A DNA stretch of 64,000 nt, taken from NCBI GenBank assembly GCA_051883555.1, contig JBJETY010000036.1:3671-67670 (forward strand). Direction: 5' to 3'. Shown piece by piece: positions 43,342 through 52,213 of the stretch; within the stretch, counting starts at the first letter, position 1, and every line of letters begins with the position of its first letter. The translations under genes and the position numbers were made by a program. This stretch comes from Christensenellales bacterium. Lineage in GTDB: Bacteria; Bacillota; Clostridia; Christensenellales; CAG-917. Under the pieces are notes generated by a model. The model had not been told where the DNA came from and ran no database searches. It was given only the letters and a program-made list of their open reading frames with translations.

Positions 43342-44273
43342 GAAAGGATATTTTAAAAAAAGCAACCGATAAGGTAAAAGCCAATCATATTCAGGCTTTA
43401 AAAAACGCCGACCTTGCATGGGAAAAAGCTTTGGCGATTCCCGAAATAGCGCAAAAGTACGACGCTTTCAAAACCTTGGAATACGATAAAATCAAAGCGG
43501 AAACCTTCGGCATAAAGTCAAACATCGACAAGGAAATAGATTCGGCGAAAAACGCCTATTTAAAGGCTCTTGACGAACACGGCTTTTCTGAAAGTAACTT
43601 TGACGTTAAATACAACTGCTCTAAATGCCGTGACAGCGGAGTTTACGACGACAAACCTTGCGATTGCGTTATTAAACTTTATTATAGCCTTTTGAACGAA
43701 TCGGTATCCAAAAGCGGTTCAAACCGCCACACGGTAAGCGATTTTATCGTAAACGGCGAGGCCGATAAAAAGCATCTTGACTTTGTAAATACCGTCATAG
43801 ACAAATTTCCTACAAAAAAGACTCTGAATTTTATCTTTAGCGGCTATACCGGCGTAGGTAAAACTTTTATGGCAAGTTGCATAGCAAACGGAGTGTCGGA
43901 AAAAGGATACGGCACAGTCTTTCTTTCCGCCTTCGAAATCACTCAAAGATGCCTTAAATATCATACGTCGTCGCTATCAGAGCGTGAAGGCATGCTCGAC
44001 GATATTTTAGAATGCGATCTGCTTGTTATCGATGATCTCGGTACGGAAGCAATGCTTAAAAACGTTACCGTCGAATATTTATTGCTGATAATTTCAGAAA
44101 GAATAGCGCACTCAAAACATACGATAATCACCACCAACCTTTCAAAAGAGCAAATCGGTGAAAGATACGGCGAAAGGTTTTTCAGCAGACTGTTTTCAGA
44201 ACAATATGCAAGTTTAAAAACTATTGGCGGTGAAGATAAACGCCTTAAAAAATCAAATGCAAAGGCTAATTAA
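43338..44273 (+). CDS. dnaI: Primosomal helicase loader DnaI (AAA+, IstB-like ATPase)
   Basis: N-terminal zinc motif CSKCRDSG...CDC, Walker A GYTGVGKT, Walker B LLVIDDLG. Confidence 0.88.
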   Translation: MRKDILKKATDKVKANHIQALKNADLAWEKALAIPEIAQKYDAFKTLEYDKIKAETFGIKSNIDKEIDSAKNAYLKALDEHGFSESNFDVKYNCSKCRDSGVYDDKPCDCVIKLYYSLLNESVSKSGSNRHTVSDFIVNGEADKKHLDFVNTVIDKFPTKKTLNFIFSGYTGVGKTFMASCIANGVSEKGYGTVFLSAFEITQRCLKYHTSSLSEREGMLDDILECDLLVIDDLGTEAMLKNVTVEYLLLIISERIAHSKHTIITTNLSKEQIGERYGERFFSRLFSEQYASLKTIGGEDKRLKKSNAKAN

Positions 44274-44462
44274 AAAATAGATTTTTATGCAACAAAATTT
44301 ATATTGCAAATAAAATGTTTTTATAAATAAAATATTGTGAATAAAAAATATTGTTAATAGCAAATAAAAATATTGCAAATAGTAAATAGAAATATTGTTA
44401 ATAGAAATTATTTAAATAAGATTTAAATAAAATTTAAGATTTAAATAAAATTTATTTAAACA

Positions 44463-44490
44463 AAAAACGGCGTTAAAACGCCGTTTTTTT
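44463..44490. terminator. Bidirectional intrinsic terminator (dnaI / transketolase)
   Basis: AAAAAACGGCGTTAAAACGCCGTTTTTTTT. Confidence 0.9.
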
Positions 44491-44522
44491 TATTGAAATA
44501 ATAGCAATAAATTTAACAACAA

Positions 44523-45452
44523 TTATTTGTTTTTTATCATTTCCTTAACTTTCAAAACGATATCTTCAGCTCTCATTTTGTAGATTTCTTTCAGATACGG
44601 CATCTTGCCGACTTCACCGAAACAATTCGGAACACCGATGGCGTCCATCTTTGTCGGATGATTTTTTGAAAGAACTTCGCTTACCGCGCTGAAAAGTCCG
44701 CCCGTAATTTCGTGGTTTTCACACGTAAGCACAAGACCTGTTTTTTTAGCGCTATTTACGATTGTTTCGGCATCGATTGGCTTTATCGTATGAACGTTTA
44801 TAATCTCTGCCGATATTCCTTCGCTTTTTAAAATTTCGTTGGCTTTCATGGTTTCCTGCACCATGATGCCGCTGCAACAGATTGTAATATCCTTTCCTTC
44901 CTGAATGACGTCGGCTTTGAAAAGGTCGAATTTATAATCCTTTTCATCGAACACCTTTTCAAGCGTTTTTCTGAAAAGACGAATATACATTGTGCCGTCG
45001 TATGCGATTATCGCAGGCATAGCGGCTTTGAGTTGCACTTCGTCAACCGGTTCGAATATTACGATATCCGCAACGGAACGAAGAGTTCCGATATCGTCCA
45101 TACCCATATGAGTGCCGCCGTTTATTTCCGCGCTGATGCCGGGGTCCGTTCCGACTATTTTTACGTTTTGTTTAGAATAAAGACAAGATAAAGTAATCTG
45201 GTCGCACACGCGCCTTGTAGCAAACGGAGCAAAGGAAGAAACGAACGGTTTAAAACCGTAACTGCTAAGTCCCGCCGCAATGGAAATCATATTCTGCTCG
45301 GCAATTCCTACGTTAAAAGACCGCTCCGGAAATGCCTTATGGATAGGCGCAGATTTTATACAGTTGGCAAGGTCGGCGTCTAAAACTACGATTTTATCGT
45401 CGTTTTTCATAGCCTCTAAAAGTGCGCCGATAAAGACTTCACGCATTTCCAT
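44523..45452 (-). CDS. tkt: Transketolase, C-terminal (pyrimidine-binding) subunit
   Basis: 309-aa split-transketolase subunit B, overlapping subunit A by 1 nt. Confidence 0.92.
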   Translation of the reverse strand: MEMREVFIGALLEAMKNDDKIVVLDADLANCIKSAPIHKAFPERSFNVGIAEQNMISIAAGLSSYGFKPFVSSFAPFATRRVCDQITLSCLYSKQNVKIVGTDPGISAEINGGTHMGMDDIGTLRSVADIVIFEPVDEVQLKAAMPAIIAYDGTMYIRLFRKTLEKVFDEKDYKFDLFKADVIQEGKDITICCSGIMVQETMKANEILKSEGISAEIINVHTIKPIDAETIVNSAKKTGLVLTCENHEITGGLFSAVSEVLSKNHPTKMDAIGVPNCFGEVGKMPYLKEIYKMRAEDIVLKVKEMIKNK

Positions 45453-46297
45453 TATTTAGCCCTCCTTATCTCTTCGATAGCCGCATTAACGGCTTCTTCG
45501 TTCAACGAAAGGCTGTGACACGCATAACCCTTTTCTTCTATACTCTTTACGCCCTTTCCTTTTACGGTTTTTGCAATAATCATCGTAGGTCTGTCCTGAC
45601 TCTTTGCGTTTTTAATCGCTTCGTCGATTTGCGTTAAATCGTGGCCGTCGATAACAATCGTATTCCAGTTGAAACTTTCCCATTTCTTGTCCAAAGGTTC
45701 CAATGAATTTATATCGTCGGTGTTTCCGTCGATTTGCATTCCGTTGTAATCGGTAAAAGCAATGAGATTGCTAAGTTTTGCCTGAGCTGCATACATAGCG
45801 GCTTCCCAGACTTGTCCTTCCTGACTTTCGCCGTCGCCGATAATAGCGTAAATCGTTGCGCCGTCGTTTTTAAGACGACTTCCCAAAGCAACGCCTACCG
45901 CGCATGAGAAACCTTGACCAAGACTTCCCGTAGTCATATCTACGCCGGGAGTTTTATTCATATCACAATGGCTTGGAAGAAGCGTGCCCGATTTATTGAG
46001 CGTCAAAAGCAAATCTTTGCTGAAATAACCGCGATTGGCAAGGGTCGCATATACGGCAGGTCCCGCATGACCTTTTGAAACGACAAGTCTGTCCCTGCCT
46101 TCCATTTTCGGATTAGACGGGTCGACGTTCATATGCTTAAAATACAAACTCGCTAAAATTTCTACAATCGACAAACTTCCGCCGATATGTCCGACGCCGA
46201 TTGAGCCGATACATTTGAGCGTGTCTATGCGAATTTCTTTGCATATCTCTTGTAAATTCATAGTATACCTCTTTAGTTGTTTTAAGTCTATCACCAC
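45452..46297 (-). CDS. tkt: Transketolase, N-terminal (TPP-binding) subunit
   Basis: GHIGGSLS and GDGESQEG motifs. 281 aa. Confidence 0.92.
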   Translation of the reverse strand: MVIDLKQLKRYTMNLQEICKEIRIDTLKCIGSIGVGHIGGSLSIVEILASLYFKHMNVDPSNPKMEGRDRLVVSKGHAGPAVYATLANRGYFSKDLLLTLNKSGTLLPSHCDMNKTPGVDMTTGSLGQGFSCAVGVALGSRLKNDGATIYAIIGDGESQEGQVWEAAMYAAQAKLSNLIAFTDYNGMQIDGNTDDINSLEPLDKKWESFNWNTIVIDGHDLTQIDEAIKNAKSQDRPTMIIAKTVKGKGVKSIEEKGYACHSLSLNEEAVNAAIEEIRRAK

Positions 46298-46313
46298 TAA
46301 AAATCTTTGTCAA
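46285..46313 (-). promoter_or_regulatory. Putative extended -10 promoter of the transketolase operon
   Basis: Minus strand reads TTGACA (46313-46308), 17 nt, TGaTAGACT (-10 at 46290-46285). Confidence 0.45.
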
Positions 46314-46416
46314 CGAAATGACCTTTTATAAGCTAAAATTAAAAAATAAAACAAAGCGGAAATAATAAAAACAATCCGATTAAGAGCAGTTCCCATAGAG
46401 AATGTAGACTTATGAT

Positions 46417-46451
46417 AAAAAAATCTCGGTTATCTTATCCGAGATTTTTTT
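46417..46451 (-). terminator. Intrinsic terminator after the 73-aa/165-aa cassette
   Basis: ATCTCGG-ttatcttat-CCGAGAT flanked by A7 and T7 runs. Confidence 0.8.
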
Positions 46452-46501
46452 ATTTTCAATTCACTTACATAATTTTTTCTTGGTATACATAATGACACCT
46501 A

Positions 46502-46999
46502 TTATTTATGCAATGTGCTAAACATAATAGCTGTGGATGCAGCGACTGATGCGCTATGTTGTATTGCGTTGACAAGCTCCATATTTCTTATATTTTCTAA
46601 TTTCTGCTTGTAAAATTCTTTCTCGTCATTGCTCATATCATCACATTTCAAATAATTTAAATATAAGTTTTTAATTTGCGGCAAAAAATTCCTTGGTCCT
46701 TTTTTTATGGCTCTACGCCCACCCAGGTTCATCAAAAGTATAAAAAAAACACCTAACCCAAGCGAGCCTATACCATATACTTTTTCAAATAGCGCACCTA
46801 TAGGTTCCCTTTCATATCCCGAAAAGGTGATTTCAGGCGGGGTGGTAAAACCAATAATCATCAAAATAAGACCAACTACAATTAAAAGCGAGCCAATAAT
46901 ATTCCAAATTAAAATTGCTTTTTTTGCCTTCATTATATGTTGTTCTCGACAATTTTCCACTTCATGATAATATTGATTTTCGGCTTCTTTAATCGTCAT
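46502..46999 (-). CDS. Hypothetical two-TM membrane protein (165 aa)
   Basis: Strong SD GGGAGGA lies 8 nt upstream. Two hydrophobic helices (ILIWNIIGSLLIVVGLILMIIGF and IGSLGLGVFFILLMNL). The start overlaps the upstream ORF by 11 nt. Base composition is visibly AT-richer and CG-poorer than the neighbouring genes. Confidence 0.65.
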   Translation of the reverse strand: MTIKEAENQYYHEVENCREQHIMKAKKAILIWNIIGSLLIVVGLILMIIGFTTPPEITFSGYEREPIGALFEKVYGIGSLGLGVFFILLMNLGGRRAIKKGPRNFLPQIKNLYLNYLKCDDMSNDEKEFYKQKLENIRNMELVNAIQHSASVAASTAIMFSTLHK

Positions 47000-47210
47000 T
47001 GTTTATATCCTCCCAATCTTTCTTTGTCTGTCTTTTTTTGATTGCTTTTGTGAATTTACTAAAAGAATGTTCTTTTGTAGATTTCAAAATACCTTTCTTA
47101 TTTGATGTCTTAAATCCCGTTGATGTCTCTTTGTCGCAAATCTCCATATACTCGCTTAAATGTATCAGAGCGTAGGCAATATCGTCAGTACTGATTTTTT
47201 CATGTTTCAT
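46989..47210 (-). CDS. Hypothetical small basic protein (73 aa)
   Basis: AGAGG SD 8 nt upstream. Translationally coupled to the 165-aa gene. No family recognised. Confidence 0.55.
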   Translation of the reverse strand: MKHEKISTDDIAYALIHLSEYMEICDKETSTGFKTSNKKGILKSTKEHSFSKFTKAIKKRQTKKDWEDINNDD

Positions 47211-47434
47211 TTATTTTTACCTCTGTAAAATAAAAAGTGCGCCTACCGAAGTAAACGCACAAAAAACGCAAACTCCGATAGTCGCCAAACCAACTGAAAA
47301 GCAAGAACAAATCTACGCTATATCCAGTACGAATTTGCATTTTTATCAAATTCATTATGGACATAACGCAAAAAGAATATAATTACCTCAAAAGATAAAA
47401 ATAGTCCTTGCCTAATTTATTCAGTTGGTTTGGC
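47211..47434 (-). ncRNA. Unclassified structured 5' leader (riboswitch/attenuator-like) of the 73-aa/165-aa cassette
   Basis: The predicted TSS G47434 starts a 15-nt arm (47434-47420) that is perfectly complementary to 47298-47284 and encloses 121 nt. A UUCG-capped terminator (47260-47237), a U tract, the SD and the ATG follow. Confidence 0.5.
47231..47260 (-). terminator. Leader terminator/attenuator hairpin with UUCG tetraloop
   Basis: Minus strand reads GUGCGUUUAC-UUCG-GUAGGCGCAC (10 bp including two G-U pairs), followed by UUUUUAUUUU. It lies 26 nt before the ATG at 47210. Confidence 0.7.
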
Positions 47435-47440
47435 ATAATT

Positions 47441-47469
47441 ATTATATCACATATAAAATATTTTATCAA
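47441..47469 (-). promoter_or_regulatory. Extended -10 sigma-A promoter of the leader
   Basis: Minus strand reads TTGATA (47469-47464), 17 nt, TGaTATAAT (-10 at 47446-47441). Confidence 0.6.
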
Positions 47470-47492
47470 GTAGTTTTTAGTGGACAAAAGAA

Positions 47493-47517
47493 AACTCGAC
47501 TTAAAAAAAGTCGAGTT
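47493..47517 (-). terminator. Intrinsic terminator ending the yxjI-like transcript
   Basis: AACTCGAC-ttaaaaaaa-GTCGAGTT, followed on the minus strand by TTTCTTTTG. Confidence 0.6.
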
Positions 47518-47544
47518 GTAATTAAAGTGATATTGTTTGAATTG

Positions 47545-47720
47545 TAAACAGTTATATTTTTAGAGTAGTCTAAAAGTTATATTTTGACTTGCAGTCAAAG
47601 TTATATTAAATAAATCCTTAACTTGCCGATAGGCAATATAACTTGCGAAAGCAAATGTCAAAATCCGTTTACGGATTTATTTAGTTGCCGAATCCCTTGT
47701 AGGGACTCGGTTAAGTTGGA
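47545..47720. repeat. Array of six short hairpins interleaved with a phased 9-mer (AGTTATATT x3 direct, x1 inverted)
   Basis: The 9-mer occurs at 47550, 47575 and 47599, with an inverted copy at 47635. The hairpins are tttaga/tctaaa, ttgact/agtcaa, ttgcc-gata-ggcaa, ttgc-gaaa-gcaa, aaatccg-ttta-cggattt and ccgaatccc-ttgta-gggactcgg. Confidence 0.7.
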
Positions 47721-47787
47721 TTGTTTTTGTCGTTTGATTTAGCGTTCGCAAAAAAATGCTGTCCTAGCCGTATCGAAACGCTTATTA

Positions 47788-48321
47788 TTAATGGCTTTGA
47801 TGATGCAACGTATCGATCAACAAACCGATTATAAGAAGATAATGTTTCGGAACGGATTCGTTAAGAATCTCCACTTTATACGTATCTGCGATTTTGAAAA
47901 CCTTTTTATTGACTTTTGCTATAAGTCTTTCCTCTTTAGGAAGCGACTTGTCCTTAATCTTCCAATTGAATCCGATAAAGCTGCCGGTTATTCTGAGTTT
48001 ATGCTCGACTCCGTTTTCGTCGACGTATTCAAGATAGCCTCTGCGCCTTAAAGGCATATGGAAACCTTCTTTGAATCTGGCAATCGGATTGCTCGCTTTG
48101 TTCTCTGCGATATATCCTTCTGCTATGTCGAATTTAGCAAAAATAAAGGATATTCTCGATACTACCGTAAGAATAGGATTGCCTTGCGGGTCGGAAATTA
48201 TGAATTTCTTATGGAAAAACGTCCATTCGCTTCTTACTAAATATTGAACGGTATCATGCTCGTCTAAAATAGAATAATTTTCGAGGACTGACCAAAATTT
48301 TTGTTTGATATAAAGTTCCAT
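47788..48321 (-). CDS. LURP-one-related / YxjI-like (tubby C-terminal-like fold) protein
   Basis: 177 aa. The N-terminus LYIKQKFWSVLENYSILDE and overall pattern match the YxjI/DUF567 family. Confidence 0.75.
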   Translation of the reverse strand: MELYIKQKFWSVLENYSILDEHDTVQYLVRSEWTFFHKKFIISDPQGNPILTVVSRISFIFAKFDIAEGYIAENKASNPIARFKEGFHMPLRRRGYLEYVDENGVEHKLRITGSFIGFNWKIKDKSLPKEERLIAKVNKKVFKIADTYKVEILNESVPKHYLLIIGLLIDTLHHQSH

Positions 48322-48591
48322 TTTCTCTCCTCCTGAAAACTTATATATTCAGTATATCATAGCGCTAGCGATTATTCAATACGCAACGCAAAAAAAAAAT
48401 AAAAATTATTAAATAATATAAATAGATTAAGTGATTAAATTATATTAAGCGATTGAAACTTATAAATGCGTTAAACAATATGCGATTAAACAAATTATAA
48501 ATGCTTTAAGCAATAACAAACGATTAAACAAATTATAAATGCGTTAAATATTAAGCAATTAAACTAAAACATTAAATGAAAACCGTTGAAT

Positions 48592-48625
48592 AAAAAAATC
48601 ACGCTCTTTACGGCGTGATTTTTAT
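48592..48625 (-). terminator. Intrinsic terminator after the folate operon
   Basis: ATCACGC-tctttacg-GCGTGAT with flanking A and T runs. Confidence 0.75.
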
Positions 48626-48690
48626 TTAGCATAGTATTAACCAACCTTAGCGTATTGAAAATTTTAACAACCGTCAAAGCGACTGCCGTT

Positions 48691-49515
48691 TTAAAGAGGC
48701 AATTCGCAGTTTAATTCGGCAAGCATCTGCTTGATACTCTTTTTTGTTTTCGGGCACACGAAATCGGGTGCGATTTCATAAAGCGGCGTCAAGACAAATT
48801 CTCTGTTGAAATAATCAGGATGCGGAAGCGTTATTTTTTTCGTATCAACAACGATATTATCGTAAGTTATAATATCGATATCCAAAGTTCTGTCCGCCCA
48901 TTTAACTTCTCTTTTTCTATCCGCTTTTGCTTCCGTTTCGTGTATGCGGTCCAACAATTCGCTCGGATTTAAAAAACATCCGAATTCGACTGCGGCGTTT
49001 AAAAAATCGTTTTCGGCAACTCCGCCGTAAGGCTTTGTAGTATATTTTGCCGAAGTCTTTTTAACCTTGCCGAATTTTTTCAGCTCGTTTATCGCAAAAT
49101 CTAAGTATGCGCTTTTATTGCCTTCGCTGCTGCCGATTGAAAGATAAGCGGTATGACTTTCTAAAGCCGTACAAAACGCCACGTCCGAAACTTTGACCGA
49201 CATCGGTGCGTCAGGCTTTGAAACTTTCACTTCGATTTTTTCTAAAAACGGATACTTAACGCTTAACAGGCGTGCAATTTCATACCCCAGCTTTTCTATT
49301 AAATTGAACGTATTGCTTTTTGTAAATTCGCTGATAAGTTGCGCCGCCTCGCCGTAGTCTACCGTATATGCAAGCTCGTCGTTTGCCATGGCTTCTTTAA
49401 AATCTCCGTAAAGGCGGACGGAAACCGAAAATCTCTGTTCCGTATCCTTTTCAAAACTAAAACAGCCGTGTTTAGCGAAAATTTCAATACCGTCAATTAT
49501 TATGCAATCTAACAA
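48691..49515 (-). CDS. folBK: Bifunctional dihydroneopterin aldolase / 6-hydroxymethyl-dihydropterin pyrophosphokinase
   Basis: N-terminal FolB-like domain plus C-terminal HPPK (RTLDIDII, PHP motifs). 274 aa. Confidence 0.9.
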   Translation of the reverse strand: MLDCIIIDGIEIFAKHGCFSFEKDTEQRFSVSVRLYGDFKEAMANDELAYTVDYGEAAQLISEFTKSNTFNLIEKLGYEIARLLSVKYPFLEKIEVKVSKPDAPMSVKVSDVAFCTALESHTAYLSIGSSEGNKSAYLDFAINELKKFGKVKKTSAKYTTKPYGGVAENDFLNAAVEFGCFLNPSELLDRIHETEAKADRKREVKWADRTLDIDIITYDNIVVDTKKITLPHPDYFNREFVLTPLYEIAPDFVCPKTKKSIKQMLAELNCELPL

Positions 49516-50275
49516 CTGCTCTCTCCTTTGCCATAACGTTTTCGGCGACGTCGTGTATGCGTATAATGTTTATTCCCTTTTCAACTGCAAGTTCGGTTGC
49601 TTTCAACGTCGGCTCCAATCTGTCTTCGACGTTTCCGCCGAACATTGATTTTCTCGATACGCCTATTAAAAGCGGATAACCGAATTTTGCAAAACGTTCA
49701 TAACCGTTCATTACTTCGAAATTCTGTTCTTTCGTCTTGCCAAAGCCTATTCCTGCGTCAAGACATATTTTGTTTTCTTTTATCCCCGCTTTTAACGCAA
49801 CGGCAAGCTGTCTTTCAAAAAACGAGTCGATATCGTCGAATAAATTTTTATATTCGGTGCCCGTCTGATTGTGCATAATGCAAACGTTGGCGTCGTATTC
49901 GGCAACCGTTTCCGCCATACCCTTGTGCATAAGTCCCCATATATCGTTTATCAGATCCGCTCCGCATTCCAAAGCGTATCTTGCAACGTCTGGCTTATCC
50001 GTATCGACGGAAATCGGAACGTTGAAACTTTTGACAATTTCTTTGAGAGGAGACAATCTCTTTATCTCTTCTTCGGCGGAAATTACTTCGTGTCCCGGTC
50101 TTGACGACATTGCGCCGATATCGATTATTTCCGCGCCGTCTTTTATTGCTCTGTCTATAACTTTTAACGCTTCATCCTGTTTGACTCTGCTACCTGCAAA
50201 GAAACTGTCAGGCGTAAGATTCACTATCGCCATTATGTGCGAGCCTTTTGAAAAATCAATTCCCTTTATTTCCAT
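49493..50275 (-). CDS. folP: Dihydropteroate synthase
   Basis: Pterin-binding barrel (NLTPDSF, DIGAMSSRPG, NDIWG motifs). 260 aa. Confidence 0.94.
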   Translation of the reverse strand: MEIKGIDFSKGSHIMAIVNLTPDSFFAGSRVKQDEALKVIDRAIKDGAEIIDIGAMSSRPGHEVISAEEEIKRLSPLKEIVKSFNVPISVDTDKPDVARYALECGADLINDIWGLMHKGMAETVAEYDANVCIMHNQTGTEYKNLFDDIDSFFERQLAVALKAGIKENKICLDAGIGFGKTKEQNFEVMNGYERFAKFGYPLLIGVSRKSMFGGNVEDRLEPTLKATELAVEKGINIIRIHDVAENVMAKERAVVRLHNN

Positions 50276-50328
50276 ACGATACCCCGAATTTTACGTAATT
50301 TAAGATTTTTAATTAACGATTTAAAATT

Positions 50329-50376
50329 CACTATTTTAAATTTACGATTTTACACTATTTTAAATTTACGATTTTA
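50329..50376. repeat. Perfect 2 x 24-bp tandem duplication inside the folate operon
   Basis: cactattttaaatttacgatttta occurs at 50329-50352 and again at 50353-50376. Degenerate copies lie upstream. Confidence 0.9.
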
Positions 50377-50424
50377 AATTGATATTTCAATTAAAGCCGT
50401 ATTCAATTGTTTGCGCAACCGTTT

Positions 50425-50985
50425 CTATCTGACGACTAAAGTTAAAATGGTATTTTTTAAGTCGTTAGAAATTTCGCCTCTCACGGAATAAGACGTAACT
50501 TTTGTTCCGACCTTTTTAATTCCTCTCGAGGTCATGCAGGTGTGCTCGCCTTCGCAAACAACCATTACGCCCTTTGCACCCAGATGTTTATATACGGCTT
50601 CGCAAATCTGGTCTGTCATTCTTTCCTGAAGCTGCAATCTTTTTGCATATACTTCAACGGTACGGGCAAGTTTCGATAAACCTACTACTTTGCCGTTAGG
50701 GATATAGGCAATTGCAATCTTCCCGAAAAACGGCATAAGATGGTGTTCGCAAGTAGATGAAAAAGTTATATCCTTTTCAAGCACAAGCTCGCCGCTCGGA
50801 GAATCGAAAGTTTTTGAAAGCGGAACGTCGGCGTTCTGTTCGTAACCCGACAGAATTTCTTCATAAGCTCTTGCTACGCGAGCGGGCGTTTCCGCAAGCC
50901 CTTCACGGTATACGTCTTCGCCCACAGCCTCTATAATCATTTTTACTGCTTTTTCTATTTTCTCTTTATCTATCATATCCGTCAA
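50425..50985 (-). CDS. folE: GTP cyclohydrolase I
   Basis: CEHHL motif and typical FolE length (186 aa). Confidence 0.95.
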
Positions 50986-52213
50986 TTATTCTCCTTGCAT
51001 CGCCTAACACGGACAGTGTACCACAAACCACGACAATTTTATACTTTTTTGCCATATCTTTTATACTTTCTTCAAGGCTTATTCCTACTTGCGCCTTGCA
51101 ATATTTCTTCGCCGTTTCGCATAGTTTTTCTTTTGCAAGCGACCTTTCGCCTTCTGCGTCGACCGCCGTTATTTCTTCGAAACACGTAGCAAAAGACTTT
51201 ACCGTCGCAACGTAATCTTTATCCGCAAAAGTGGCAACGATTCCGCCAACCTTTTCGCCGTTAAAATATTTATTCACGGTTTTGGCAAGTGCCGCCGCCC
51301 CGTCGGCGTTGTGTGCGCCGTCTAAAACAAATATATTATTTTTACGCTTCATAACCTCGAAACGCCCCGGCCAAACCGTTTCGATAAGTCCGCGGTGTAT
51401 GGCGTCTTTACCAATAAATACGCCGTTGTCGTTAAGTACCTTTGCGGCAAGTACGGCAAGCGAAGCGTTCTGTATCTGATGGTCGCCGAGTAGCCTTATG
51501 AAATAATCTTCGTTTTCAAACTCAAAAAGCTGTCCACGCGTAGAATATTCCTTGCCCTCAAAATCCGTTGCGAAATAAGTCATAAGATGATTTACGAACA
51601 AAGGCATTATCTCTTTTTTTTGCATAACGGTACAAAGCGGACAACCGTCTGCAATAGCTAATTTTTCTTTTGCTATCTGCTCTAAGGTGTCGCCCAGAAT
51701 TTGCATATGGTCAAAACCTATTTCGGTTATCACGGCAAGCAATTTGTTCTTAACGACGTTTGTTGCGTCAAGCCTTCCGCCCAATCCCGTTTCGATTACG
51801 CATAAATCACAGCGATTTTTCAAAAAAAACATAAACGCTACTGCCGTTTCGATTTCAAAAGCCGTAGGTTCGAAACCCGTCCCTGCAAGTTTATCCGAAG
51901 CGTTTTTGCAAACGGTCATAAGTTCCGCAAGCTCTTCGTCGGATATATTCTGTCCGTTTATTTTGTATCGCTCGTTATATGTAAACACGGACGGCGACGA
52001 ATAACTTCCCACTTTATAATCGGCGCAACGCAATATCGACGATAAATAAGCAAGCGTAGACCCCTTTCCGTTTGTACCTGCAATGTGAACGAATTTTAAT
52101 TCTCTTTCAGGATTTCCCAACTCATCAAGAAGTTTCTGCATCGTCTCGAGTCCGTATTTGCTTCCGAATTTACTTTTGTTAGTTATATACTCTACAGCTT
52201 CCGTGTATTCCAT
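50966..52213 (-). CDS. folC: Folylpolyglutamate synthase / dihydrofolate synthase
   Basis: Mur-ligase P-loop AGTNGKGS. 415 aa. Confidence 0.93.

Follow-up and report, generated by a model that had tools for sequence, protein, structure and literature searches.

Organization of the locus

A 64,000-nt stretch of a Christensenellales genome (contig JBJETY010000036.1; hereafter, the window) carries a 1324-bp insert on the minus strand, located between the transketolase gene tkt and a LURP-one-related gene, which encodes two small proteins behind a structured leader RNA. The genome to which the window belongs (G000) is a 1.49-Mb assembly of 86 contigs, with 39.5% GC and 96% completeness. It was compared with 40 relatives (5 from the same genus, 19 from the same family, and 16 from the same order), all genomes considered being metagenome-assembled genomes (MAGs). 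The neighboring genes of the insert are DnaD/DnaC-like genes, tkt, the LURP-one-related gene, and the fol genes. A sequence-only reading of this DNA had described a compositionally distinct two-gene cassette at 46452-47492, inserted between the transketolase and folate operons. The tkt side of that placement is correct, while the other neighbor is the LURP-one-related gene that precedes the folate operon; likewise, the proposed coordinates delimit the inner part of an element whose real extent is 46385-47708.

Along the minus strand, the element consists of a hairpin array, an insulating terminator, a promoter, a leader, the 73-aa gene, the 165-aa gene, a terminator, and an 18-nt tail. The insulating terminator (AACTCGAC...GTCGAGTT followed by a T-run; 47493-47517, minus strand) was located by a terminator scan, and the adjacent sigma-70-type promoter, TTGATA-17-TGTGATATAAT (47441-47469, minus strand), was found by a scan with 11 of 12 matches and an extended -10 element. 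The -10 box ends 6-7 nt ahead of the first base of leader helix P1, a distance that is fixed across an alignment of 99 leaders. The leader itself (47227-47436, minus strand) spans ~208 nt up to the end of its T-tract and is followed by the 73-aa gene (46989-47210, minus strand) and the 165-aa gene (46502-46999, minus strand). At the 3′ end, a terminator with an 18-bp stem that is 94% complementary and followed by a T-run (46415-46453, minus strand) is conserved in the related cassettes at loci L027 and L032. Downstream of it lies the tail motif TTCTCTATGGGAACTGCT (46385-46402, minus strand), which these two closest cassettes retain up to their own insertion boundaries, homology to L032 stopping exactly at 46386. 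The promoter and the two flanking terminators are sequence-level calls and, at that level, the earlier proposal that the unit has its own promoter, leader, and terminator holds.

Insertion boundaries and the empty site

The boundaries of the element were delineated by comparison with the closest congener, G005, whose tkt flank is 93% identical to that of the window. The empty site in G005 is a perfect intrinsic-terminator hairpin, AAAAACAATCC-GGTTAAGT-CGGATTGTTTTT. The two arms of this host hairpin, which are contiguous in G005, are separated by 1340 bp in the window, the left arm (AAAAACAATCC, 46367-46377) pairing with the right arm (GGATTGTTTTT, 47718-47728) across the insertion. A blastn alignment of the window against G005 joins position 46384 to 47708, and the hairpin-loop word stands on both sides of the element as a 7-bp direct repeat, G(A/G)TTAAG, with one mismatch between its copies: GATTAAG on the left (46378-46384) and GGTTAAG on the right (47709-47715), the empty site in G005 holding a single GGTTAAG. 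Since both the alignment join and the loop word agree, the element is defined as 46385-47708 with a 7-bp target-site duplication of the hairpin loop. The filled and empty sites together show, at the level of alignment, that the 1324-bp element entered the loop of an intrinsic terminator between the LURP-one-related gene and tkt, duplicating 7 bp. The claim of the sequence-only reading that no direct-repeat boundary is visible was therefore mistaken.

The LURP-one-related gene (47788-48321, minus strand; 177 aa; PF04525, E = 1.5e-9) is kept in all five congeners, where it adjoins tkt via a short spacer. The tkt/LURP-one-related intergenic space is 1443 bp in the window, while the flanks are joined directly in G005 and the space measures 107-129 bp, or is similarly short, in the other four congeners (G001, G002, G003, and G004), from which the insert is likewise absent. 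Thus, among the congeners compared, the insert occupies this site only in the present species. The split terminator belonged to the LURP-one-related gene, which is now served by the insulating terminator of the element (47517-47493). The presence of the cassette across relatives, which the sequence-only reading had proposed to check, gave a uniform result: a search of the 40 relatives, most of which are at least 90% complete, detected the 165-aa protein in none, and the cassette is not conserved at this site across the family.

Base composition

The 1041-bp segment singled out by the sequence-only reading as AT-rich is indeed so by windowed statistics, with a GC content of 0.319 versus 0.395 for the genome (5th percentile of same-size genome windows). 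Its CpG observed/expected ratio (o/e) is 1.09 versus an unusually high genome value of 1.79 (0.8th percentile). At the gene level, for which percentiles refer to a crude set of open reading frames (ORFs) of at least 120 aa and are hence rough for the short 73-aa gene, GC at third codon positions (GC3) is 0.30 in the 165-aa gene (2nd percentile) and 0.34 in the 73-aa gene (6th percentile), again in line with the earlier impression. The GC content expected from the amino acid composition is 0.386 and 0.356, respectively, compared with a genome mean of 0.417. Because the observed GC remains below even this expectation (by 0.046 for the 165-aa gene and 0.036 for the 73-aa gene; 2nd-3rd percentile), the AT bias goes beyond an amino acid effect alone. 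NCG codons are, as reported, strongly depleted in the 73-aa gene (7% versus 35%; 0.9th percentile), the deficit being only mild in the 165-aa gene (27%; 21st percentile). The neighboring tkt halves, the LURP-one-related gene, and folKB/folP have compositions typical of the genome.

Related cassettes in other hosts

At three other loci (L027, L031, and L032), the cassette is found among entirely different genes. Over the span running from the -10 box through the 3′ tail (47452-46386), these cassettes are 77-79% identical to the window, while flanking housekeeping genes of the same hosts are 62-68% identical or unalignable. Since the cassette is more conserved between hosts than the genes that flank it, it was transferred horizontally. 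In addition, cassette GC is 32-40% in 11 other hosts of 42-59% GC, always much AT-richer than the host. The comparison of loci thus shows, as judged from alignments, that the same leader and gene pair reside at unrelated sites in other gut Clostridia. Together with the empty site in G005, the absence from 40 relatives, and the differing neighborhoods, these identities bear out the foreign insertion that the sequence-only reading had proposed.

The flanking signatures vary among these hosts. The L032 cassette splits a 17-bp host hairpin, L027 is flanked by a 12-bp direct repeat, and L018 by a 28-bp duplicated terminator. The cassette at L020 (5227-6920) adjoins a tRNA gene and has a 56-bp imperfect direct repeat with stacked 216-bp tandem units, and that at L021 (5260-6720) lies directly after a tRNA 3′ end with an imperfect direct repeat of ~85 bp. 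As a separate observation, the tandem units at L020 look like repeated site-specific integration.

The hairpin array at the 5′ end of the insert (47526-47708, plus strand) is one copy of an interspersed element. Within it, the word AGTTATATT occurs between small hairpins at 47550, 47575, and 47599, and inverted at 47635, and the region 47490-47710 folds with a z-score of -8.4. The element is present as a single copy in G000 and has five matches in G021, eight in G006, and four in G119, all of which are genomes of the family, at 74-94% identity. The copies read in these three genomes (loci L182-L188) start directly after intrinsic terminators (..TTTT-AGTTATATCG). The hairpin array may be a clue to the lineage from which the insert came. 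Its layout comprises a left half of variable small hairpins spaced by AGTTATATT, a central AAGGT..AACTTG, and a right half of hairpins spaced by ATATCAC. A promoter-like site on the opposite strand (TTGGCA-18-TAAAAT, 10 of 12 matches; 47430-47459, plus strand) faces away from the leader into the array and, given a terminator-like hairpin at 47661-47678 (plus strand), a small divergent transcript is possible.

The leader RNA and a proposed switch

The leader has a minimum free energy of -87.5 kcal/mol (z = -10.4) and folds into a 15-bp helix P1 (47434-47420 with 47298-47284), a rod of ~150 nt, and a terminator/antiterminator pair. The rod has an apical hairpin (47353-47347 with 47337-47331), the antiterminator pairs 47281-47273 with 47251-47243, and the UUCG-capped terminator (47260-47237) ends 15 nt before the Shine-Dalgarno sequence (SD); all of these helices are on the minus strand. 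P1, the apical hairpin, and the antiterminator are supported by covariation in an alignment of 99 distinct leaders, in which 94% of cells are paired versus 84.6% after shuffling and 24-52% after sliding, with compensatory change at 18 of 31 pairs. The terminator and antiterminator helices upstream of the SD are mutually exclusive and show covariation, as in a transcription-attenuation leader. A cmscan search against Rfam over 44000-51000 at E ≤ 1 gave no match within 46300-47800.

A further, long-range pairing would act as an anti-antiterminator: the 3′ arm of the apical hairpin, GCAAAUUCC, can pair with GGAGUUUGC, the start of the 5′ strand of the antiterminator (47338-47330 with 47276-47268, minus strand). 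This pairing is formed in 98.6% of cells and shows 13 compensatory cells; in 7 of these, G-C is replaced by A-U at a position that the apical hairpin leaves unpaired. Because both segments are highly conserved, its support is moderate. The stem of the apical hairpin is invariant, and its loop contains conserved unpaired nucleotides.

Taken together, these pairings suggest a three-helix switch. Transcription would start at the first base of P1, and three mutually exclusive helices would decide whether RNA polymerase halts 15 nt before the SD. The partner of the apical 3′ arm GCAAAUUCC would be either the 5′ arm of the same hairpin or GGAGUUUGC. In the predicted OFF state, the GCAAAUUCC/GGAGUUUGC pairing would block the antiterminator so that the UUCG-capped terminator wins; in the predicted ON state, a closed apical hairpin would leave the antiterminator free to form and the genes would be read. 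The invariant apical hairpin is probably the element sensed by a factor acting in trans.

The encoded proteins

The two ORFs overlap by 11 nt and, as initially reported, both have an SD (GAGG for the 73-aa gene and GGAGG for the 165-aa gene). The start codon of the 165-aa gene lies 9 nt after the GGAGG motif, inside the 73-aa gene. After read-through of the leader terminator, the 73-aa and 165-aa proteins would be made by coupled translation. Both genes are under purifying selection, with ratios of nonsynonymous to synonymous substitution of 0.09-0.21 (165 aa) and 0.15-0.35 (73 aa).

The 165-aa protein represents an orphan family of two-transmembrane (TM) proteins, with 41 homologs detected by word search and 45 cluster representatives in an exhaustive profile search of 1.84 billion proteins; the family stayed at 45 members in that search, with no bridge to a larger family. 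All homologs come from gut Clostridia MAGs or metagenomes. Hydropathy places TM segments at residues ~25-59 and 74-94. In an AlphaFold2 model with a mean per-residue confidence (pLDDT) of 83.5, helices span residues 3-52, 67-100, 106-117, and 124-164 and a beta-hairpin spans residues 56-63, such that an N-terminal helix runs into TM1 and is followed by a short outside beta-hairpin with a conserved TPPEI motif, by TM2, and by a cytoplasmic helical hairpin with the conserved sequence KGPxNFLPQIKNLYLNYLKCEDM...EFYKQKLEDIRNMELVNA. The predicted topology is N-in/C-in with two TM segments, in which the conserved TPPEI lies in a small loop on the outside and a helical domain of 70 aa, highly conserved, is cytoplasmic.

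The 73-aa protein was modeled as a soluble four-helix protein (AlphaFold2, pLDDT 80.3) with an invariant Cys-Asp and a KKRQxKK tail. Its description by the sequence-only reading as small and soluble agrees with this model, but it is only mildly basic, with a net charge of +2. Its gene precedes the 165-aa gene in 11 of 15 loci, while in the other four (L016, L017, L019, and L025) the leader is followed by the 165-aa gene without this partner. In the congener G004 (L013, contig C53, 3135-3892), a 73-aa homolog with 60% identity and the leader precede an unrelated 615-aa lipoprotein gene, and the same arrangement occurs at L123. Because it can thus be paired with the 615-aa lipoprotein instead of the 165-aa protein, the 73-aa protein is a separate leader-proximal module.

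Searches of Pfam, PHROGs, PADLOC, and NCBIfam returned nothing above noise for either protein, and Foldseek comparison of the models with the PDB found only generic helical hairpins, the best fold matches being nonsignificant ones to hairpins of alpha-pore-forming toxins (E = 0.02, TM-score 0.3). These results agree with the earlier statement that neither protein belongs to a recognized family. Sequence and profile searches of the PDB likewise gave no match for either protein beyond a marginal one between the conserved cytoplasmic motif of the 165-aa protein (residues 102-144) and 9WIW ("Endoribonuclease"; E = 0.012 over 43 residues), which was rejected as probably due to chance. The 9WIW entry is cited once in a paper on the TadIV-1 anti-Thoeris sponge (PMC13243611).

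The leader family and its cargo

A search with a 24-nt leader pattern detected the leader in 9 of 108 family genomes, in at least 120 metagenome contigs, and in 9 viral contigs. A second copy in G000 (contig C52; L033, 2276-3448) has the same upstream hairpin (that of 47493-47517), promoter, and leader at 77% identity and precedes an unrelated 211-aa protein with an N-terminal TM segment (L033, 2674-3309). This unit has 28.8% GC versus 39.8% in its flanks and a CpG o/e of 1.13. It is absent from the syntenic site in G003 and G004, where 232-247 bp correspond to the 1173 bp of the unit; since the congener intergenic DNA at this site is unalignable and a contig break intervenes in G005, the ends of the unit are not fixed. 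An empty-site search for another carrier, G078, in its own genus matched the left flank only, the right flank being a multicopy repeat. In the same genome (L038, 2335-2900), a ~127-bp interspersed repeat (2479-2603 and 2770-2896) lies downstream of the leader cassette and has numerous matches throughout the genomes of that genus.

Among 91 distinct first ORFs behind the leader, 32% have a lipobox, 33% have other TM segments, and 35% have neither, compared with a lipobox background of 5% in the genome as scored by the same crude rule. An envelope-type protein is found among the first two ORFs at 76 of the 91 loci. The cargo is otherwise very varied, including lipoproteins of up to 1482 aa, leucine-rich repeat surface proteins, zinc-ribbon proteins, and nuclease-like genes, as well as a GIY-YIG-like protein and a methyltransferase with a DUF262/HNH pair.

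In the viral contigs, the leader is followed by a variable lipoprotein or zinc-ribbon gene and then by terS (phrog_1889, E = 3e-58), terL, and the portal gene. By gene order, this placement is that of a putative late-operon leader with a moron behind it. A further scaffold, L177 (MT835503.1, 320-2830), deposited as a human-faeces "bacteriophage" and unverified, has a leader variant before N6-adenine methyltransferase-like and DUF262/HNH-like genes; MATE and ABC transporter genes follow, so this scaffold may be bacterial.

A scan of 49 leader loci showed a weak enrichment of split hairpins or direct repeats (length ≥14 at 3 of 49 loci versus 1% of controls), most of which comes from the subgroup of 165-aa cassettes. 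Split hairpins or direct repeats were therefore rejected as a general property of leader loci.

Interpretation

These results suggest that the region is probably a horizontally acquired and transcriptionally self-contained accessory cassette, which resembles a phage moron but is located in the plain chromosome and not in a prophage. As predicted from its sequence features, the cassette is insulated by a terminator at either side and comprises a strong sigma-70 promoter, a ~208-nt leader, and two overlapping genes evolving under purifying selection. Because leaders of the same family carry lipoproteins, surface and membrane proteins, and some nuclease or methylase genes, and because they occur before terS in viral contigs, the cassette might be a conditionally expressed module that acts on the cell envelope, of a lysogenic-conversion or superinfection-exclusion type, being neither metabolic nor a classical toxin-antitoxin system. 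This functional assignment is by analogy and is proposed tentatively, at somewhat less than even confidence.

With respect to mobility, no recombinase was found within the unit, in line with the earlier remark that no integrase is visible. Elsewhere, G000 has only two tyrosine recombinases and one large serine recombinase, and it contains no Y1 (PF01797), IS110, or reverse transcriptase (RT) genes. Mobilization in trans is the most economical reading.

Several observations weigh against this interpretation of the region. Selection, not recent arrival, could explain part of the AT bias. In addition to a recombinase, the unit lacks terminal inverted repeats, and no second copy of the cassette is present in G000; the flanking duplications range from 7 to ~85 bp among hosts, which fits no single known mechanism. 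The assignment of the ON and OFF states is drawn from predicted pairings rather than from transcripts. Every library and fold search left both proteins as orphans, and the function proposed for them is tentative. Finally, none of 50,697 phage records contains a match to the 165-aa protein and no phage gene is located near the cassette in the window, so that the link to phages comes only from the leader.

Alternative explanations

The sequence-only reading had suggested that the gene pair has the shape of a toxin-antitoxin, abortive-infection, or holin-like module. In such a module, the two-TM protein would be the membrane-damaging component and the 73-aa protein its neutralizer, with the leader silencing both until a trigger arrives. 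A pair of small overlapping genes in which the soluble product is encoded first, predicted terminator-gated expression, a patchy and horizontally moving distribution, the GIY-YIG-like and methylase-DUF262/HNH genes behind other copies of the leader, and the resemblance, albeit nonsignificant, to pore-forming toxin hairpins would all suit such a module. However, neither protein matches a family in PADLOC, Pfam, PHROG, or NCBIfam, and the 73-aa protein has no recognized DNA-binding or antitoxin fold. The genes are also separable, with the 165-aa gene alone at four loci and the 73-aa gene joined to another lipoprotein gene in G004 and at L123, which argues against an obligate antidote. As for a holin, no lysin gene lies within 5 kb, no PHROG lysis family is matched, and a 165-aa protein with a conserved 70-aa cytoplasmic domain is unlike holins. 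With no family, defense, or fold match and no endolysin or lysis context, the proposal found no support, and this explanation is considered unlikely.

Alternatively, the leader could be a riboswitch for a small molecule or ion, with the 165-aa protein and its partner forming a channel, exporter, or sensor for the ligand within an accessory stress or homeostasis module. The covarying terminator/antiterminator platform and the conserved unpaired nucleotides of the apical loop are compatible with this idea, and small membrane proteins are typical riboswitch cargo, as in the guanidine, fluoride, and Mn2+ riboswitches. Yet the cargo of the leader family is extremely heterogeneous, extending to a phage packaging operon, and is unlike a coherent metabolite regulon. 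Moreover, instead of a multihelix junction pocket, the presumed sensor takes the form of a long rod hairpin whose stem is invariant, and it matches no Rfam family. A riboswitch of this kind is therefore unlikely.

Assignment of the element to a known class of small mobile DNA, namely an integron gene cassette, a palindrome-associated transposable element (PATE) of the IS200/IS605 type, or a miniature inverted-repeat transposable element (MITE) with passenger genes, is very unlikely. The junction GGTTAAGT fits the integron core GTTRRRY, the insertion is into a hairpin, hairpins are located near both ends together with a similar ~12-nt motif in direct orientation, and a 7-bp target duplication is present. 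Nevertheless, the 3′ end has no attC-like imperfect palindrome, its only hairpin being a canonical terminator, and a promoter is present within the cassette; on these grounds the integron reading was rejected. IS200/IS605-type elements make no target duplication, in contrast to the 7 bp observed here, and the absence of Y1, IS110, and RT genes from G000 led to rejection of the IS200/IS605, IS110, and retroelement readings alike. For a MITE, no inverted repeat other than the host hairpin joins the two ends, and the genome contains a single copy. More generally, the end sequences are unconserved beyond the closest relatives, and the duplication length is as variable among hosts as noted above.

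Lastly, the notion of an ancestral, vertically inherited pair that relatives have lost, with its composition due to a Lys/Ile/Phe-rich membrane protein and a basic protein, retains only a marginal probability and is largely refuted: although the amino acid content does lower the expected GC and the MAGs of relatives are incomplete, the observed GC is a further 0.036-0.046 below that expectation, the host hairpin, unbroken in G005, is split here with its loop duplicated, the pair is absent from 5 congeners and 35 further relatives (most at least 90% complete), and the cassette is far more conserved between hosts than the flanking genes.

Relation to known systems

The closest parallel for an accessory cassette of this kind is provided by phage morons of the HK97 gene 15 type, the definition of which, along with the HK97 gp15 membrane exclusion protein, has been described previously (PMC3594210). 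Like morons, the cassette is an extra unit separating genes that adjoin each other in relatives, is equipped with a promoter and a terminator, differs from its surroundings in GC content, spreads horizontally, and encodes a small predicted inner-membrane product; its leader family also occurs just before terS in viral contigs. Unlike morons, it is found in an ordinary chromosome with no prophage around it, and hence outside the phage residence that belongs to the definition. It is also gated by a structured terminator-switch leader instead of being simply constitutive, and its insertion duplicated a defined target within a terminator loop. A related comparison is with the superinfection-exclusion proteins and lipoproteins of temperate phages (HK97 gp15, P22 SieA, and Cor; PMC3594210), which are likewise small envelope proteins from accessory units that are self-contained. 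The cargo of the leader family is similarly dominated by lipoproteins and TM proteins, but the cassette proteins have no sequence or fold similarity to these exclusion proteins.

The leader is comparable to the terminator/antiterminator/anti-antiterminator leaders of Firmicutes, including riboswitch and T-box platforms, in which a constitutive promoter is followed by covarying, competing helices at an intrinsic terminator just before the SD. It differs from them in having no Rfam match, in its ~150-nt rod sensor with an invariant apical hairpin, in cargo that forms no coherent regulon, and in traveling with that cargo in a mobile unit.

In the Streptococcus thermophilus literature on integrative and conjugative elements, cis-mobilizable elements (CIMEs) are integrase-less units flanked by att-like direct repeats. 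The cassettes share with CIMEs the lack of their own recombinase and the presence of flanking direct repeats, as well as a position after a tRNA 3′ end (L021) or beside a tRNA gene (L020). In contrast, the repeat in the window is only 7 bp, the target is a terminator loop and not a tRNA gene, and 1.3 kb is far smaller than described CIMEs.

Significance

This analysis provides a base-pair-resolved insertion, with both filled and empty sites, for a family of tiny recombinase-less accessory cassettes that retain a foreign composition across hosts differing by 20 GC points. It also links a widespread, uncatalogued leader RNA with mobile DNA and with phage packaging operons, and the covariation-supported three-helix model makes the proposed switch directly testable. 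The two orphan proteins, which have confident structural models, are good targets for functional work.

A broader and more speculative reading, unlikely as a whole, is that the leader cassettes constitute an unrecognized class of small mobile accessory units in gut Clostridia and their phages, which would be defined by a 5′ promoter/RNA-switch module rather than by a recombination site and would insert at intrinsic-terminator hairpins. The leader that these cassettes share also stands at the head of the terS-terL-portal operon in viral contigs. The switch might be thrown by a phage-encoded or infection-derived factor, such that chromosomal copies would turn on their envelope or nuclease effectors only when late genes of the cognate phage are expressed. 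If the switch does respond to phage or envelope signals, these cassettes would represent a new route by which gut Clostridia gain conditional surface or defense functions.

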